A stretch of 64,000 nt of DNA from Roseomonas sp. (GCA_020249925.1 JADCER010000001.1:81953-145952); one strand, 5' to 3'; shown: positions 21,424 to 28,063, numbered from the stretch's first letter. The notes: generated by a model not told the origin, from the sequence alone. Numbers and translations: made by a program.

Positions 21424-22224
21424 GTGAGGGAAGTTCCAGTTCCAGCCTATAGGCTGGGTCGCAAGGCGGGTGGGGGCCTGCCTTGGCGAATGATCATCAT
21501 CGCGGGCTCTGTGCTTGCGGCGGGCGCTGTCATTGCGGCCTTGGTCTGGGGGTTTTCGCGCGGGTCAACGCGCAATGCGCCGCTGATCGAAGCGGATGCG
21601 CGCCCCATCAAGGTGCGGCCGGACAATCCGGGCGGGTTGCGCGTGCCCAATCAGGATGAGCTGATTTTTGACCGTAATCGCGGCGCGCGGGCGACAGCAC
21701 CAGGTGCCCTGGCGCCAGAGGCCGAGAAACCGCGCGTGGATCAGTTGCGCCAGCAATTGGCCGAAAGGGCGGCGCAGGAAGCCGCCCGCAGCGCGCCACC
21801 CGCCGCAACACCCGCGCCGGCACAACCGGCCGCGCCGCAAGCCGCAGCGCGCAGCGCACCGCAGGCGGCCGCACCTGCGCCGCCGGCGCCGCCGGCCACG
21901 ACCTCGGCACTCACGGCACCAAGCCTGCCTGCGCCCGTGCCGGCAAATGCCGAGCGTTTTGCGCCGGTCGCTAATGGCCGCGCGCAGGTGCAATTGGGCG
22001 CACTGCCAAGCGAAGCCGCCGCGCGCGGTGAATGGGAAAGGCTGCAAAGGCGTGTGCCTGAATTGCTGAGCAATCGCCGCGTGACCTTGGCGCCCCTGGA
22101 CCGCGAAGGGCAGACCACGATGTTCCGCATCCGCACCGGTGGCTTTGCCGATGCGGCAACCGCGCGCGCCTTTTGTGAGGAAATGAAGACCCGCAGCATC
22201 CCTTGCATGGTCATTGGCGGATAG
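21424..22224 (+). CDS. SPOR domain-containing protein
   Basis: N-terminal TM, a Pro/Ala-rich linker and a C-terminal SPOR-like domain (AQVQLGALPSEAAARGEWERLQRR...MFRIRTGGFADAATARAFCEEM). Confidence 0.75.
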   Translation: MREVPVPAYRLGRKAGGGLPWRMIIIAGSVLAAGAVIAALVWGFSRGSTRNAPLIEADARPIKVRPDNPGGLRVPNQDELIFDRNRGARATAPGALAPEAEKPRVDQLRQQLAERAAQEAARSAPPAATPAPAQPAAPQAAARSAPQAAAPAPPAPPATTSALTAPSLPAPVPANAERFAPVANGRAQVQLGALPSEAAARGEWERLQRRVPELLSNRRVTLAPLDREGQTTMFRIRTGGFADAATARAFCEEMKTRSIPCMVIGG

Positions 22225-22230
22225 GGTCGG

Positions 22231-23262
22231 ATGGCGCCTATTCGGGCTGCGATTCTTGGCCTTTCCGGACCGCGCCTGACCGCGGCGGAAGCAGCGCTTT
22301 GGCGGCTATTCCCGCCGCTTGGCGCCATTTTGTTCGCGCGCAATATCGAAGACTCCGTGCAATTGCGCGCGCTCACCAACGACATTCGCGATGTGCTGGG
22401 TGCCGCCGCGCCGATCCTGATTGACCAGGAAGGCGGGCGCGTGGCGCGGCTTAAGCCTCCGCATTGGGAGGCATTTCCCGCAGCAGCGCGCTTCGAAGCC
22501 CAGCCGGAAGTGGCCCAGCGCGCCAATGCGTATCTGCTTGGCGCCATGTGCCGCGCGGCCGGCTTGGATGTGGTTTGCGCGCCCGTTCTGGATTTGCGCC
22601 TGCCCGGCGCGCATCAGGTGATTGGCGATCGCGCCTTCAGTGCGGCGCCGGAGGAGATTACGCGGCTTGGCGCTGCCTGCATTGCTGGGCTGCAAGCTGC
22701 GGGCTGCATTCCCGTGATCAAGCATATCCCAGGGCATGGCCGCGCCTTGGCCGATAGCCATTACGAATTGCCGCGCGTTGCTGTTGATGTTGAGGCGCTT
22801 GCCGAGGATATCGCCCCGTTTCGCGCCTTGGCCGGCAGCGGTGCCTGGGCGATGACCGCGCATGTGCTGTATGAGGCCTGGGATGCGCGCCTGCCGGCGA
22901 CGATTTCCCCCACTGTGATCCAAAGCATCATCCGGGGAGAGATCGAATTCGATGGCCTGCTGATCACGGATGATTTGGCGATGGGGGCGCTTGCCGGCAT
23001 GGCGAATGACCTGGCCGATGCGGCGCTTTCGGCGGGCTGCGACGTGGTGCTGCATTGCAGCGGCCGGCTTGAGGATGCGGCGGCGCTGCTGCCCGATTGC
23101 CCGGTGCTGAGCGATGATGCGCTGCGGCGCCTGGCGCATGCGGATGGCGCACGGCGGGGCTTTGGCGCAGGGGATGCTGCTGCGCTGCGCGGATTGCGCG
23201 ATGGGGTGCTGGCCGCGCCGATGCTGGAGCTGTGGGAGGAGGACCCGACGGAGCGAGGGTAG
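22231..23262 (+). CDS. nagZ: Beta-N-acetylhexosaminidase (GH3)
   Basis: ILIDQEGGRVARL, KHIPGHGRALADSH and LLITDDLAM motifs of NagZ. Confidence 0.85.
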   Translation: MAPIRAAILGLSGPRLTAAEAALWRLFPPLGAILFARNIEDSVQLRALTNDIRDVLGAAAPILIDQEGGRVARLKPPHWEAFPAAARFEAQPEVAQRANAYLLGAMCRAAGLDVVCAPVLDLRLPGAHQVIGDRAFSAAPEEITRLGAACIAGLQAAGCIPVIKHIPGHGRALADSHYELPRVAVDVEALAEDIAPFRALAGSGAWAMTAHVLYEAWDARLPATISPTVIQSIIRGEIEFDGLLITDDLAMGALAGMANDLADAALSAGCDVVLHCSGRLEDAAALLPDCPVLSDDALRRLAHADGARRGFGAGDAAALRGLRDGVLAAPMLELWEEDPTERG

Positions 23263-23301
23263 GGGTGTCCAACATCGCGCGGTTCTGGCGAGAGAGCCAG
23301 A

Positions 23302-26300
23302 TCAATCGAAAGCCGCGGCAGTAAAGTCTTCGATGCGGTTGTACCTAAGCGTGTCCTGAAAAACGCCGAGTACCTTCATCAAATCGCGGTGCTTGAGACG
23401 TTCGATGAAATCCAATTCATCAAGATCATTGTCGCGCAGCTCTATCTGCTGATGCAAGGCGCTGCGCCTTTGGTGTTCCTGATCCCAATAGTCACGATAG
23501 GCGGCGCGGGCGTAAACATCTGAGATATTGGCATCAGGCAGCTTGAAGACGCGCACCCGCTGCTTCAGTTCCTCGGCATCCTGGCGGCAATAGATCCAGG
23601 TGTCGTAAAGTTCTCGCATGCAATAGGTGGATTTGAGGTATTTGTCGCTCAGGAAGATGAAAATACGCTGGCTGCGCGCGATGTCCAGCATGAAGGAGCG
23701 GATGCTGGCGCCAAATACCATGCTTTGCTTGTCGCGCAATATCTCAATATTTCTGGCACCGGCCGCATCGCACAACAGATTAACAGGCGCTTCCAAATCC
23801 GGGCCGGTGGAATCCGTCTCGTTCCAAGCATAGCTGATGGCGTATTTGGGTCGTTCTCCAGGCGGTCGCGTAGCTTGAATGATCGGGGCTTGCAGCGTTG
23901 GCGCAGGCGCTTCGCGCGCCAGCCTCACCTGGTCCGTGGTAGCGGAGAGGTTCAGCTTGCGGTTTTCCTCACTGACCAATTCGGCCAGCCTTTCCAGTAG
24001 TTTGGCTGCGTCGCCATCCTTGGTTTCAATGCTGACGCTGCCTTGCCATTCCCCCGCTGGCAAATCCTGCGTCACCAGCGCCCGCGCGCGCGTTTGCGCA
24101 TCGTAAAGGCAGACACCACCGCGAAAATAATCGGCGCGGGTTTGCGAGAGCGTCCCCAATTGGCTGATCACATTGCGGATCAGGCCTTCATGCAGAAAGG
24201 CATAGGTGAAGACCTGCCGATGCGTGGCAGGCCCTTCGCCCCAGGTGGCGTCAATCTGTACCTGAATGACCGATTTTTCAGGCAGGAATTCCGGGGCGAG
24301 ATAGAGCGTATTGTCGCCATCCGCCCCGCAGCTTTCGTCCTCGCGGTAGACAAAACAGATGCCGCAGGATGTCATCATGGAAAGGAACAGGCGTTGTTCG
24401 GCTTCCGAATAATCGCGCCAGACCTGCGCCAGATCGGCCCGTTCGAACATCCCACCACGGCGCTTCAAGCGGCCATAGGTTTCATTCCGGTCAAACAGCG
24501 CATAGATCGCGGCCATGGCCCAGTTTTGGTCCAGCACGATGCGATCCTGGAAAAGGCCTTCACAATAAAAAACCGTGCCATTATCATTCAAATAGGCCAG
24601 TGCGTATTCGGCCGAGGCAATGCCGCCTTCTTCCTGATACCAGTTCGCAAAAGTGGATTTTTCCATCAGGCGCCATTCTTCCGGCAGGCTGCCATCTGGC
24701 TGGCGCAGCTTTTCGATCCGCCGCTGCAGCAAAATCCGTGGCTTGCCAATTTCCACGGCGCCGCGGTTTTGGTGCAGCGCCACCACCGCATCCTGCAAGG
24801 CGCCGCGCAGCGTATTGATGCGCGGTGGATCTGAGGTGCTGACCTGCACACAGGTGCTGCTGGCCATTTGGTCCTGATCCAGCGGCGGGGGCAGAACGCC
24901 ATCCTGATCAAGGCGCGTTTGCGCGATGATCAAGGAGCTATCCTTATGGCCGGCATCCTTGGCATAGGCATGCCAATAGCGAAGCGGATGGTTGCGGAAC
25001 GCCATGCCGTGCTGATCGGGCTCAGCTTCCGGCAATTCGGTTTCCCGGCTCCAGACCAGCAGGAAAATGGCGCGGGTGCGGGCGAAAAGCGCATGGGTGC
25101 CATGATAAATCTCCTGCCCGCCAAAATCCCATAGCTTCAGGCGCGTCTCAGGCACTGAATCCTGCGCCGGCAGGGTCACTTGCGTAATGCGAATGCCATG
25201 GGTGGAATCCCATTGCGGCTGGAAGGGCTGACCGGCCAGGCGTCGCGCGATTTGCGTCTTGCCAGCACGACCATTGCCAAGGATGAGCAGCTTCGCTTCG
25301 CTTATGTGCTCGGCTCCGGCTTCAAGTTCTGCCAGATGGGCGCGGAGGCGTTGCAGGCAATTATCGCCGAGGACTTCGTCGGGGATGCCGGGGATGGAGG
25401 TGCTCTTCGCATCCAGCTTCGTCAGCAACGGCCGCCGCCATAGTGAAATAGGTACCGTCGCTAATTTGCATTCAGAGACAGAGAGGAACTGTAGCTGCTC
25501 CAACCCGGCGATGGGGGTTAGATCGCTGACCTGCGTGTGGCTGAAGTCGAGGTACTGTAGCTGCCGAAGCCCGGCGATGGGGGATAGGTCGCTAATCTCC
25601 GTGGCGAAGCAGCTGAGGCGCTGTAACTGCTGCAGCTCCGCGATTGGGGCTAGATCGCTAACTTCTGTGGCGCCGCAACCAAGGGTCTTTAACTGCTTCA
25701 AACCGGCGATCGGCGAAAGGTTGCTGATCTCTGCGTAATGGCAGCCTAGGTACTGAAGCTGCTGTAGCGCAGTCAGATGCGAAAGATTGCTTACCTTTGT
25801 GGCATGGCAGTGAAGCCAATGAAGTTGCTGTAGGCCGGCGATGGGGGATAGGTCACTGACCTGCGTGTGGCTGCAGTCTAGGTGCTGTAGCTGCTTGAGC
25901 CCGGCGATGGGGGATAGATCGCCGACCTGCCTATTACTGCAGTTAAGATACTGTAGCCGCAGCAATCCGTTGATGGGGGATAGGTCGCTGACCTGCGTGC
26001 TGCTGCAGTCCAGTTGCTGTAGCTGGTGTAACCCAGTGATGTGAGAGAGGTCGCTGACCTTTGTGCCGGGGCAGCTAAGGCGCTGTAGGTGCTGCAGCTT
26101 GGCGATGGGGGATAGGTCATCGCATCTCGTGTTTTCCAAATACAATTCCTGTAGCGCGATTAAGCCCGATAACGCGCTTATGTCCGAGAAAGAACTCCGT
26201 TCGGTGGGGCGCACTCGATCATTCACACCCTCGGCAGTCACCTGACAAAAATCGCCAAGACTCAGGCGCTTAAGCTTGGTGAGCTTCGAAAGGGCGTCGG

Positions 26301-26409
26301 GCAACTTCGTCAAAGCCAGACCACCCAAATCCAGCCAATCCTGCCCCGTGCGCGCGGCTTCCGCTATCCGCTCCTCCGCAATCCGTTCGCCATCGGTCAT
26401 GTCAGCCAT
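23302..26409 (-). CDS. ROCO-family protein: LRR (11 x 22 aa) - Roc GTPase - COR - C-terminal TIR domain
   Basis: Track ORF 23302-26448 begins at a TTG. The ATG at 26409 (MADMTDGERIAE...) has an AGGA 7 nt upstream. Residues are numbered from 26448. LRRs are aa 89-330. The P-loop is GNGRAGKT (aa 391-398) and switch II is DFGGQ (aa 441-445). G4 is degenerate: TRLD (aa 511-514). The COR-like region includes LAYLNDNGTVFY...RIVLDQNW and LFLSMMTSCGICF. The TIR-like region is YAISYAWNE...RIFIFLSDKYLKSTYCMRELYD. Confidence 0.8.
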   Translation of the reverse strand: MADMTDGERIAEERIAEAARTGQDWLDLGGLALTKLPDALSKLTKLKRLSLGDFCQVTAEGVNDRVRPTERSSFSDISALSGLIALQELYLENTRCDDLSPIAKLQHLQRLSCPGTKVSDLSHITGLHQLQQLDCSSTQVSDLSPINGLLRLQYLNCSNRQVGDLSPIAGLKQLQHLDCSHTQVSDLSPIAGLQQLHWLHCHATKVSNLSHLTALQQLQYLGCHYAEISNLSPIAGLKQLKTLGCGATEVSDLAPIAELQQLQRLSCFATEISDLSPIAGLRQLQYLDFSHTQVSDLTPIAGLEQLQFLSVSECKLATVPISLWRRPLLTKLDAKSTSIPGIPDEVLGDNCLQRLRAHLAELEAGAEHISEAKLLILGNGRAGKTQIARRLAGQPFQPQWDSTHGIRITQVTLPAQDSVPETRLKLWDFGGQEIYHGTHALFARTRAIFLLVWSRETELPEAEPDQHGMAFRNHPLRYWHAYAKDAGHKDSSLIIAQTRLDQDGVLPPPLDQDQMASSTCVQVSTSDPPRINTLRGALQDAVVALHQNRGAVEIGKPRILLQRRIEKLRQPDGSLPEEWRLMEKSTFANWYQEEGGIASAEYALAYLNDNGTVFYCEGLFQDRIVLDQNWAMAAIYALFDRNETYGRLKRRGGMFERADLAQVWRDYSEAEQRLFLSMMTSCGICFVYREDESCGADGDNTLYLAPEFLPEKSVIQVQIDATWGEGPATHRQVFTYAFLHEGLIRNVISQLGTLSQTRADYFRGGVCLYDAQTRARALVTQDLPAGEWQGSVSIETKDGDAAKLLERLAELVSEENRKLNLSATTDQVRLAREAPAPTLQAPIIQATRPPGERPKYAISYAWNETDSTGPDLEAPVNLLCDAAGARNIEILRDKQSMVFGASIRSFMLDIARSQRIFIFLSDKYLKSTYCMRELYDTWIYCRQDAEELKQRVRVFKLPDANISDVYARAAYRDYWDQEHQRRSALHQQIELRDNDLDELDFIERLKHRDLMKVLGVFQDTLRYNRIEDFTAAAFD
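23305..23853 (-). other. TIR-like effector domain of the ROCO protein
   Basis: A beta-A-like strand KYAISYAW and SDKYLKSTYCMRELYD (SxxYxxSxxCxxEL pattern). The candidate catalytic Glu codon is at 23611-23613. Confidence 0.65.
23959..25299 (-). other. Roc GTPase + COR domain region of the ROCO protein
   Basis: G1, G3 and G4-like motifs plus COR-like hydrophobic patterns, as listed for the CDS. Confidence 0.7.
25459..26184 (-). repeat. Eleven in-frame 66-bp tandem repeats encoding the LRR array
   Basis: Strings such as ccggcgatgggggataggtcgctgacctgcgtg recur with a 66-bp period. The peptide consensus is DLSPIAGLxQLQxLxCSxTxVS. Confidence 0.85.
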
Positions 26410-26494
26410 GCACCAATCCTGCCATATGCCCAACCACGCGCAAACCAAAATCCCCGCCCGCCAAATCGTCCCGCCGGCAGCATGGGGCGCAGCA

Positions 26495-27307
26495 TCACAC
26501 CCACCCCCGCCACCCCGCCCAAATCACCGCAACCCGATCCACCACCCCACGCGGCGCGGGCACCACCTTCCCCGTCGCCAACCGCCGCAAATCCCGCCCC
26601 GCCAGCACCACCGGCAGCGCGGCAGCCATCAGCGCCTTCGGCACATCACGCGGCGCGCTTCGCAGCGCCTCCAACCCCTCAGCCGCCATCTCAGCGCAAA
26701 GCGCGGCAAGCGCGGGCGCCGTGGGCGCGCTGATCACCGCCTCAGCATTCAGCCCAGCCGCCGCCAGCCGATCACCCGGCAGCAGGCAGCGCCCTTGCGC
26801 GGCATGGGCGCCGACAGACCGCAACACCCCCGCCAACCCATAAGCCGCGCCAAGGGCGCGGAGCTTCTCGGCATCCTCTACACTCCCGCCCAAAGCCAGG
26901 CCCGCCGCATAGGCAAAGCCGCCGGCGGTGCCGCGCAGCCAGGCAACGAAATCCACCTCGGTCGGGATGCCGGCTTCCTCGGTCTCCACCTCACGCGCGT
27001 CAATCATGGCGCCGAGTGCCGTCGGGTCCAGGCTGCCGGCGGTGAGCGCCGCGTGAAGGGGCTCGGCCACCTCATGCCGGCGGGCGGGTTTGCCGGCCTG
27101 CGCTTCCTCCAGCGCATCGCGCCACCATTGCAGGCGGATCAGCGCGGCCATGGGGTGGCTCGCGGCTTCGCGGGCGCGGGCCAATTCATGGTTGAAGGCA
27201 ATCAGGGTGAAAATGGCCTCGCGCTTTTCCGGCGGCGCGAAAAGCGCGGCCAGGAAACGATCCGGGTCATGGGCGCGGGCAAAGGCCGCTATCGGGGAAA
27301 GGCTCAC
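26495..27307 (-). CDS. Squalene/phytoene synthase family protein (NDUFAF6-like)
   Basis: DPDRFLAALFAPPEKREAIFTLIAFNHELARAREAAS...IRLQWWRDAL is the typical N-terminus of the alphaproteobacterial SQS_PSY-like family. Confidence 0.7.
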   Translation of the reverse strand: MSLSPIAAFARAHDPDRFLAALFAPPEKREAIFTLIAFNHELARAREAASHPMAALIRLQWWRDALEEAQAGKPARRHEVAEPLHAALTAGSLDPTALGAMIDAREVETEEAGIPTEVDFVAWLRGTAGGFAYAAGLALGGSVEDAEKLRALGAAYGLAGVLRSVGAHAAQGRCLLPGDRLAAAGLNAEAVISAPTAPALAALCAEMAAEGLEALRSAPRDVPKALMAAALPVVLAGRDLRRLATGKVVPAPRGVVDRVAVIWAGWRGWV

Positions 27308-27424
27308 GCGGCCTGATATGCCTGGGCGCGCGCCGCGCGGGAAGGGTGCGGTTGACGCCTGTGCTGGCGCCGCTTACCTCAGCCTCAGCGTTAATCACTC
27401 ACATCTGAGGAACGGAGAAACCCC

Positions 27425-28063
27425 ATGGCTTTCAGCCTGCCCGCGCTGCCCTATTCCACCAATGCGCTTGCCGCCAATGGCATGTGCCAGGAAACCCTGG
27501 AACTGCATCATGGCAAGCATCACAATGCCTATGTCACGGCGCTGAATGGGCTGATCGAAGCCAAGGGCCTGGCCGGCAAGTCTCTGGAAGCGATCTGCGC
27601 CGAAGCCGGCAAGGCGGGCGCGGATGGCCTGCCGGTGCTGAACCAGGCGGGGCAGCATTACAACCATATCCTGTTCTGGCAGGTGATGCAGCCGGGCGGT
27701 GGTGGCGACAAGCTGCCGGGCGCTTTGGCGGCCAAGATTGATAGCGATCTGGGTGGCCTCGCCGCCTTCAAGGAAGCCTTCAAGCAGGCAGGTGTGACGC
27801 AGTTCGGCTCTGGCTGGGCTTGGCTGATCATCGGTGGCGACGGCAAGCTGAAGGTGACCAAGACGCCGAATGGCGCCAACCCAATCTCCACCGGCGAAGG
27901 CAAGCCGATTCTGGGCGTGGATGTGTGGGAACACGCCTATTACCTGGATTTCCGCAATGTGCGCCCGAATTACCTGGATAACTTCCTGAACAAGCTGGTG
28001 AATTGGGAAGTGGTGGCCGATCTGATGGGCAAGGGTGGTCTTGCTTCCGGCCAATCTGCGTAA
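27425..28063 (+). CDS. sodB: Superoxide dismutase (Fe type)
   Basis: LPALPY...LELHHGKHH...AGQHYNH..FGSGWAWL...DVWEHAYYLD. Confidence 0.9.
   Translation: MAFSLPALPYSTNALAANGMCQETLELHHGKHHNAYVTALNGLIEAKGLAGKSLEAICAEAGKAGADGLPVLNQAGQHYNHILFWQVMQPGGGGDKLPGALAAKIDSDLGGLAAFKEAFKQAGVTQFGSGWAWLIIGGDGKLKVTKTPNGANPISTGEGKPILGVDVWEHAYYLDFRNVRPNYLDNFLNKLVNWEVVADLMGKGGLASGQSA

Follow-up and report, generated by a model that had tools for sequence, protein, structure and literature searches.

A single-gene LRR-Roc-COR-TIR protein in a variable chromosomal slot of a freshwater Roseomonas-like clade: a candidate GTPase-switched immune sensor

The stretch of Roseomonas sp. DNA analysed here (GCA_020249925.1 JADCER010000001.1:81953-145952; 64,000 nucleotides, called the window throughout, in whose coordinates positions are given) carries on its minus strand a gene for a protein in which a leucine-rich repeat (LRR) solenoid, a Ras-like Roc GTPase, a COR region and a TIR domain follow one another on a single chain. 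The observations are best explained by a cytoplasmic single-chain ROCO G-protein that acts as a counter-invader (anti-phage) sensor in the manner of the nucleotide-binding LRR receptors (NLRs), a reading to which a probability of about 0.6 is assigned. The gene sits alone, as accessory cargo, in a hypervariable slot that nagZ and a squalene/phytoene synthase-family (SQS) gene flank in a freshwater Roseomonas-like clade.

The longest minus-strand frame spans 23302..26448, as given in the initial annotation for a product of ~1035-1048 amino acids. The ATG at 26409, giving 1035 amino acids, is its likely start, because AGGA precedes it by seven bases and the orthologues, which share the start Met, begin with MADMTDGERIAEERI. 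The features of the gene and its product are as follows.

23302..26409, minus strand: ROCO-TIR coding sequence, 1035 amino acids plus stop (ATG 26409, stop codon 23302-23304), from the open reading frame (ORF) listing and translation
25375..26346, minus strand: N-terminal LRR solenoid, ~residues 22-345, 11 regular repeats plus a C-terminal cap (Pfam LRR_4)
25465-26190, minus strand: eleven 22-residue repeats in register, residues 74-315
24790..25314, minus strand: Roc GTPase, ~residues 366-540 (Pfam Roc, phmmer)
25255..25278, minus strand: P-loop GNGRAGKT, residues 378-385, K384 codon 25258-25260
25114..25128, minus strand: switch II / G3 DFGGQ, residues 428-432
24907..24918, minus strand: G4 TRLD, residues 498-501, non-canonical (not NKxD) with the Asp kept; family consensus QTxCD
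23929..24789, minus strand: COR region, ~residues 541-827, helical COR-A and alpha/beta COR-B (Pfam, Foldseek)
23305..23847, minus strand: C-terminal TIR, residues 855-1035, with long terminal helices at 965-1033 (profile and fold)
23611..23613, minus strand: Glu933 codon, TIR catalytic-Glu position in S-x-x-C-x-x-E-L

The coordinates of the motifs named in the initial annotation proved exact throughout (K384, DFGGQ, TRLD, KYAISYAW at residues 855-862, and the E933 codon); the stretch containing E933, FIFLSDKYLKSTYCMRELYD, corresponds to residues 917-936. The full-length AlphaFold 2 (AF2) model has a mean predicted local distance difference test (pLDDT) value of 85.8, the sole long low-confidence stretch being the linker 828-841. 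Profile searches together with AlphaFold and Foldseek support all four domains, LRR, Roc, COR and TIR.

For the C-terminal TIR, the Pfam TIR_2 model scores 26.1 bits on the whole protein, under its 28-bit cut-off, and 28.7 bits on the isolated C-terminus. An alignment of the last 200 residues of the window protein with 28 homologous C-termini (A1) was matched by TIR_2 in 29 of 29 sequences, with a best value of 3e-13. The profile built from A1 retrieved mainly TIR proteins from the PDB, among them Roq1 (2.7e-7), SpbK (1.6e-4), AbTir (0.15), L6, RUN1, TcpB, Cat1, SIGIRR and TLR1. The AF2 model of the domain (pLDDT 90.7) has RUN1, RPS4, the SPARTA TIR-APAZ protein, L7, RPP1, AbTir and MyD88 as top Foldseek matches in the PDB, with template modelling (TM) scores of 0.52-0.61 on the best plant TIR targets. 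The sub-threshold whole-protein score as a sign that no TIR is present was thus rejected, and the TIR is accepted because both profile and fold searches support it.

In the profile alignment E933 lies opposite the WCLxEL Glu of Roq1 and L6, at the position of the catalytic residue of TIR NADases. It does not vary in A1, nor in A2, an alignment of 34 full-length homologues reaching down to 38% identity, where S859, Y860, W862, D893, G900, F906, Y924, S927, C930 and L934, like E933, are invariant or at least 90% conserved. The ratio of nonsynonymous to synonymous substitution rates (dN/dS; Nei-Gojobori, against two syntenic orthologues, as for all ratios below) is 0.14-0.28 for the TIR, which reflects purifying selection. 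The initial annotation, which had placed a Glu at the WCxxE position of a TIR, is upheld by the modelled fold and by the invariance of this residue.

The C-terminal part of the TIR varies in a pattern of its own. A metagenomic protein (P0001) is 97% identical to the window protein. Orthologues 68-75% identical overall split over the last 215 residues into those 76-96% and those 49-55% identical to the window protein (P0007, P0008, P0009, P0012, P0014, P0016 and P0019-P0021 are involved); the split falls at window positions 23305-23620, TIR residues ~930-1035. As judged by eye, the divergence starts just past the catalytic helix; in its N-terminal half the TIR is nearly identical. This distribution points to a mosaic or recombinant C-terminal TIR half among the orthologues.

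In the nucleotide switch, Pfam Roc matches residues 373-499 with 3.1e-17, and phmmer with the Roc-COR part finds C. tepidum Roco at 3.6e-19, with a second stretch in COR, and M. barkeri Roco2 at 2e-17. COR-A is matched at residues 599-709 (2.1e-17) and COR-B weakly at 733-799 (E 0.013); the AF2 model displays an alpha/beta unit at residues 730-825, within the structural alignment to the LRR-Roc-COR part of CtRoco. Roc is thus followed directly by COR on one polypeptide, COR-B is present and the G1-G5 motifs are intact, as is characteristic of ROCO proteins. Pfam, phmmer and Foldseek thereby sustain the Roc domain, P-loop and degenerate G4 read in the initial annotation, and its COR-like region is now resolved into COR-A and COR-B.

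Residues G378, N379, G383, K384 and T385 of the P-loop and W427, D428, F429, G430 and G431 around G3 are invariant in A2; Q432, Q497 and the G4 residue D501 are at least 90% conserved, and switch I (S402, T403, H404) and the G5 Ser (S524) are invariant or at least 90% conserved. The dN/dS values of Roc (0.13-0.16) and COR (0.14-0.22) reflect purifying selection. TRLD as the mark of a dead GTPase was considered and rejected, because D501 and the remaining G motifs are conserved across the family; the Roc GTPase is probably active. GTP binding and hydrolysis, with a nucleotide-dependent dimer-monomer cycle, are inferred by analogy from work on CtRoco and LRRK2.

The N-terminal solenoid evolves in a different manner. 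Pfam LRR_4 matches the whole protein with 2.7e-43 in 11 stretches, and at the DNA level a 66-bp tandem array of 9.6 copies lies at 25484-26115; the eleven 22-residue repeats initially counted are indeed present and in register. With a dN/dS of 0.37-0.49 the LRR region is the fastest-evolving part of the protein, and its gaps relative to the two orthologues, 66 and 88 residues, equal three and four whole repeats. Its dN to one relative is 0.17, as compared to 0.005 for the nagZ flank of the same relative. Within the repeat, positions 15, 17, 19, 20 and 22 have entropies of 2.4-3.3 bits, as against 1.7 bits or less for most scaffold positions, and these variable positions are the x positions of LxLxCxxTx. 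In LRR receptors generally the x positions of this motif form the ligand-binding face. The variation is therefore sensor-like, and argues circumstantially for an immune role.

The proposed mechanism joins these parts into one chain of events. The LRR solenoid would bind an invader-derived ligand, which would shift the nucleotide state, and hence the dimer or oligomer state, of Roc-COR, the module that would stand in, as a GTPase, for the STAND ATPase of NLRs. The conformational change would let the C-terminal TIRs self-associate into an NAD+-cleaving assembly, and NAD+ depletion, or an ADP-ribose (ADPR)-derived product, would bring about abortive infection by stopping the infected cell from growing.

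An LRR protein with a TIR might alternatively be a secreted or host-targeting effector, with an internalin-like LRR and a TcpB/TirS-like TIR, directed against eukaryotic grazers or hosts. JGI labels homologues 'internalin A', bacterial TIR proteins such as TcpB appear in the profile search, and the NCBIfam internalin and XopL/XopAC LRR models match in part. These matches are far under the cut-offs, the internalin matches being confined to the LRR with 156 bits as compared to a cut-off of 1600 bits. No hydrophobic stretch resembling a signal peptide is present at the N-terminus (MADMTDGERIAEERIAEAAR...), the protein possesses a complete Roc-COR switch of the intracellular type, and no secretion-system genes occur among the nearby ORFs scanned. 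A secreted effector is accordingly regarded as most improbable.

The intracellular sensor reading draws further on the chromosomal setting. A NagZ search yielded 80 loci of relatives; those nearest to the window, at 84-99% NagZ identity, come mostly from freshwater metagenome-assembled genomes (MAGs) labelled Roseomonas sp. or Acetobacteraceae. The slot and the contents found in it are listed below, with loci numbered L.

22231..23262, plus strand: nagZ (GH3 family), left flank of the slot; Pfam Glyco_hydro_3 1.8e-46; 84-99% identical in the clade
~23263..26494, no strand: segment absent from the empty L020 junction, one gene plus an 85-bp upstream spacer (junctions compared by eye)
26495..27307, minus strand: squalene/phytoene-synthase-family gene, right flank, co-directional; SQS_PSY 1.6e-38; 89-93% in relatives
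L020: slot empty, 9 bp between nagZ and SQS
window, L001, L002, L008 and L009: slot with ROCO-TIR orthologue, 68-84% identity
L003/L005: ROCO-TIR next to SQS following rearrangement
L007:11914-14037 (minus strand), L017:6772-8913, L019:2690-4498, L022:2241-4571 and L032:11034-12614: slot with an alternative LRR gene, whose product has a different C-terminal module
L004, L007, L011, L013, L016, L018, L021, L022, L026 (11106-11908) and L027: TacA/TacT pair adjoining nagZ
L016:11137-12795 and L021:11137-12795: animal-haem-peroxidase-like gene, 552 amino acids, PF03098 1.3e-41
L011: DUF2806 gene in the slot

With conserved flanks whose 3′ ends converge, variable content, an empty site and toxin-antitoxin genes, the slot has the properties of a core-genome hotspot. 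As compared to the empty junction, the insert is one gene, in keeping with the single-gene accessory cargo proposed in the initial annotation; the description as a singleton fails, as syntenic ROCO-TIR orthologues occur in at least five related MAGs and the family is large. Comparison of the region downstream of nagZ has accordingly a double outcome: presence is polymorphic, down to an empty site, and at least five relatives share the position.

The alternative LRR proteins (602-776 amino acids) have nearly the same N-terminus and LRR leader as ROCO-TIR (MADMTDGE..AARTGQDWLDL). Their C-terminal ~380 residues are unrelated to ROCO-TIR and contain a hydrophobic, membrane-like segment; in this half there is no Roc-COR and no Pfam match, and PADLOC gives zero matches for the alternative slot cargo. 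Only 36 homologues were found, all fused to LRRs and apparently limited to the clade. The alternative allele looks like a swap of output module on a common sensor scaffold.

Relative to L001, synonymous divergence (dS) is 0.06-0.07 for nagZ and SPOR and 0.17-0.25 for SQS, SOD and ROCO (window 21424-28063). This jump across the slot points to a homologous-recombination breakpoint there, and suggests that the SQS-side flank was imported together with the cargo.

The TacA/TacT pairs, a DUF1778 antitoxin and a TacT-like toxin of the GNAT family, lie at the nagZ-proximal end of the slot; neither the window nor any other ROCO-TIR carrier has one. A gene for a 221-residue hydrophobic protein apparently interrupts the pair in L013 and L016.

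The window is ordinary chromosome. The gene order around the slot is a dGTPase-like HD gene, argS, SPOR and nagZ on the plus strand, ROCO and SQS/PSY on the minus strand, and then SOD, DUF815 and SLT; ten further window ORFs scanned are metabolic, motility or unassigned. The neighbours are thus as initially annotated: argS-SPOR-nagZ converge on the gene, which shares its strand with SQS_PSY upstream. This neighbourhood bears on the possibility that the TIR is a Thoeris-like signal generator, making a cyclic-ADPR-like or other NAD-derived nucleotide for an effector encoded elsewhere. NAD+-depleting and signal-producing TIRs cannot be separated by sequence, Glu933 would be conserved under either reading, plant TIR domains are among the closest structures, and SpbK and Cat1 appear in the profile search. 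On the other side, the slot holds the ROCO-TIR gene alone, the neighbours within ~10 kb serve housekeeping functions and include no SIR2, SLOG or macro-domain partner, and distant homologues too stand alone with no conserved partner. Neither does a ThsA-type effector gene, as Thoeris would have, occur among the neighbouring ORFs scanned. A signal generator acting through a separate effector is therefore held to be quite unlikely.

The gene has a GC content of 0.575 as compared to 0.667 for nagZ and 0.712 for SQS, and a GC content at third codon positions (GC3) of 0.68 as compared to 0.72 and 0.79; the low GC and the A/T-ending codons noticed at first hold relative to these flanks. They do not hold as the sign of an island or of transfer. 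Over 53 window ORFs mean GC is 0.637 (sd 0.036) and mean GC3 0.711 (sd 0.042), so that the GC3 of the gene lies 0.8 sd below the mean, and a total GC about as low is seen in argS and motA. The GC deficit is one of amino-acid composition, because it is located mostly in codon positions 1 and 2. As GC3 falls within the range of the window, composition is no evidence for recent transfer, and recent horizontal transfer on this ground was rejected. Insertion of a mobile element was also rejected, with no mobility gene near, as stated in the initial annotation and found again in the window ORFs scanned, and with no obvious target duplication at the junctions relative to the empty site in a comparison by eye that included no formal repeat search. 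Origin on a phage or plasmid was rejected likewise, the phage collection holding zero records of the family and plasmid records being only three (Niveispirillum, Haliscomenobacter).

A strong local asymmetry between the strands was seen at window 26100-27000, over the 3′ part of SQS and the 85-bp spacer, with a GC skew of -0.29 and an AT skew of up to +0.33. G-rich tracts lie on the coding (minus) strand just 5′ of the ROCO start: GGGGCGGG..GGGGTGGTGG..GGCGGGGTGGCGGGGGTGGG.

Several observations weigh against an immune sensor. GC3 is native-like. The gene is co-directional with SQS and 85 bp downstream of it, so that it may have long been resident there and serve housekeeping signalling; a promoter and terminator scan found none in the spacer and none past the stop codon. 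No integrase, transposase or tRNA occurs among the window ORFs scanned. As a known defence system the protein was rejected: PADLOC-DB v2.0.0 gives no system model match, and only spbK is hit, with E 0.001 over 29 residues (912-940). Ala901 (codon 23707-23709) departs from the G-D motif that follows TIR strand B, as an Asp or Glu is found there in most homologues. The host belongs to an uncultured lineage known from MAGs only, and hence no phage is known for it. No experimental study of a ROCO-TIR protein was found in the literature on ROCO or Roc-COR and phage defence or NADase activity, which agrees with the initial annotation.

The coupling of switch and TIR is a further difficulty, because TIR NADases need self-association and GTP monomerises CtRoco. 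According to the title of PMC11052575, GTP binding drives the monomerisation of CtRoco, and the Roco working model (PMC6337361) likewise puts the GTP-bound form towards monomers. The active state of the window protein may thus be dimeric or GDP-bound, may be a ligand-nucleated higher-order assembly, or may be unlike that of CtRoco.

Part of this evidence would fit a non-immune regulatory ROCO protein of the clade, either a GTP-controlled scaffold or stress-signalling protein with the TIR as a protein interaction module, or one with a metabolic role linked to SQS/PSY. Native-like GC3 (0.68 vs 0.711), the conserved position in relatives, the arrangement with SQS with no promoter-like site in the spacer, purifying selection on all enzymatic domains, and the lack of a match to known defence models are consistent with it. 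However, close relatives have an empty site or unrelated cargo, which is hard to square with a core function, the LRR diversification pattern is against it, and an enzymatic TIR is favoured because the catalytic-position Glu is invariant. A non-immune role is therefore considered unlikely. The immune-sensor logic put forward in the initial annotation gains circumstantially from the polymorphism of the slot, from its TacA/TacT and LRR-effector alleles and from the LRR variation; its novelty does not stand, as the architecture had already been predicted.

That prediction was made by Kaur, Burroughs, Iyer and Aravind (eLife 2021; PMC8195603), who describe prokaryotic proteins in which an AP-GTPase (Roc) and COR are preceded by fast-evolving LRRs, and present LRR-Roc-COR-TIR, in the text and in Fig. 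6D, as a predicted counter-invader system on computational grounds only. In their scheme an LRR-Roc-COR core carries a variable C-terminal effector, TIR being one of at least 24 listed, and the source data contain ~580 'COR+TIR' occurrences, such as Npun_F6039. A 2019 ROCO review had described all identified prokaryotic ROCOs as plain LRR-Roc-COR. The domain order of the window protein (by Pfam, TIR_2 and Foldseek) is that of the class defined by Kaur et al.; the ROCO-TIR architecture was thus already catalogued in 2021, and the window gene is a new member and not a new class.

Among 8000 candidates scored, 3908 are homologues at E<1e-5, and the C-terminal TIR is shared by 108 of the 120 best homologues, which come from Alpha-, Beta- and Gammaproteobacteria. 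The same architecture occurs in Azospirillum, Skermanella, Rhodopseudomonas, Acidisoma, Methylovulum, Undibacterium, Steroidobacteraceae and many metagenomes, under no names other than 'COR domain-containing protein', 'leucine-rich repeat domain-containing protein' and 'internalin A'. In the three distant contexts retrieved ROCO-TIR stands alone with no conserved partner, the neighbours being a PDDEXK_2 nuclease; VMAP-C with a MoxR-type AAA_5 ATPase and an antitoxin; and KfrA with CHAT. In Methylovulum psychrotolerans (L084:1976-11612) a 42%-identical ROCO-TIR lies ~3.6 kb from an argS-SPOR pair, followed by PDDEXK_2; this proximity may be a coincidence or a recurrent insertion neighbourhood.

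A word-indexed search with the TIR alone returned just six fragments, and an exhaustive search of cluster representatives was used instead, which gave 647 representatives at E<=1e-10. Most of the listed TIR matches are C-terminal in their proteins, many of which have 800-1300 residues. The mid-length proteins scanned (414-579 amino acids) are COR-A plus TIR fragments in 3 of 3 cases, and where the TIR is at or near the N-terminus, two of the seven scanned are fused to an FGE-sulfatase (FGS) domain.

Among known proteins, Nostoc punctiforme Npun_F6039 (ACC84329.1, 1109 amino acids) has the same order LRR-Roc-COR-TIR and is likewise a single gene, whereas the window gene is alphaproteobacterial, from a freshwater Roseomonas-like host, and lies in a hypervariable slot with an alternative LRR-effector allele. 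CtRoco (6HLU, 3DPU, 8R4B) shares the LRR-Roc-COR core, being the best structural match (Foldseek 6HLU E 6e-42 over 861 columns, TM 0.63 on target) and the best Roc-COR sequence match, at an identity of ~21%; it differs in that the solved LRR-Roc-COR construct has no TIR. To our knowledge, the biological role of CtRoco is not known. LRRK2 and LRRK1 rank next after 6HLU in the Foldseek search. Human LRRK2, LRRK1 and DAPK1 also have Roc-COR after LRR (Foldseek LRRK2 E 1e-25, identity ~16%), and the G4 of the human ROCO proteins is likewise non-canonical with the Asp kept, but their output is a protein kinase, with WD40, ankyrin or armadillo repeats, and not a TIR.

A bacterial Roc-COR fused to an effector of the cell-death type, as here, appears in Johnson et al. 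(bioRxiv 10.1101/2021.06.07.447441), where a Runella Roc-COR-CHAT protease was purified and assayed on a bacterial gasdermin. As described there, the Runella system has several genes and a CHAT protease cleaving a separate gasdermin, whereas the window has a TIR in a single gene; the passage on it makes no mention of an LRR-TIR arrangement. This protease, the genes beside distant homologues, the FGS fusions of the TIR and the independent prediction by Kaur et al. count as wider context in favour of the immune reading.

The combination of repeat sensor, NTPase switch and TIR is common to the plant TIR-containing NLRs (TNLs; Roq1, RPP1) and to bacterial TIR fusions of the Avs and bNACHT type, and the window TIR is closest in both sequence and fold to TNL TIRs. 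The switch of TNL and STAND proteins is, however, an ATPase of the AAA+ type, either NB-ARC or NACHT, with no relationship to the Ras-like Roc, and the domain order of TNLs is reversed, with the TIR N-terminal and the LRR C-terminal. No STAND-family Pfam match was found in the window protein, whose sole NTPase is the Ras-like Roc. By this comparison it is a putative functional analogue, and not a member, of the STAND/NLR receptors. ThsB, SpbK, AbTir and SPARTA TIR-APAZ share the TIR fold and the conserved Glu at the catalytic position, but are stand-alone TIR proteins with no LRR or Roc-COR, whose activation depends on different partners (ThsA, Argonaute, a phage portal protein).

The new elements are the allelic series at the nagZ-SQS slot, the swap between ROCO-TIR and an LRR-linked output module with no Pfam match, and the mosaic C-terminal half of the TIR. 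The practical value is moderate, with the architecture catalogued and the host uncultured and known from MAGs only. The allelic series, which comprises an empty site, ROCO-TIR genes with 8 to 14 LRRs and a different output on a shared LRR leader, would suit the dissection of sensor from effector. If the protein is a defence sensor, it would provide experimental proof that a Ras-like Roc-COR can replace STAND ATPases in NLR-type immunity, an idea that was predicted in 2021 and for which no experimental test was found in the literature, and it would bear on the original role of ROCO proteins, including LRRK2. The wider proposal, on which the evidence is about evenly balanced, is that ROCO proteins may be ancient GTPase-switched single-chain immune receptors parallel to NLR/STAND, of which the window gene may be a working example, its LRR sensor acting through Roc-COR on a TIR NADase, with recombination at the slot swapping Roc-COR-TIR for a membrane-like output cassette. 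If this is true, immunity would be an ancestral function of the LRRK2 family, and the control of output by Roc-COR could be studied in a tractable bacterial model.

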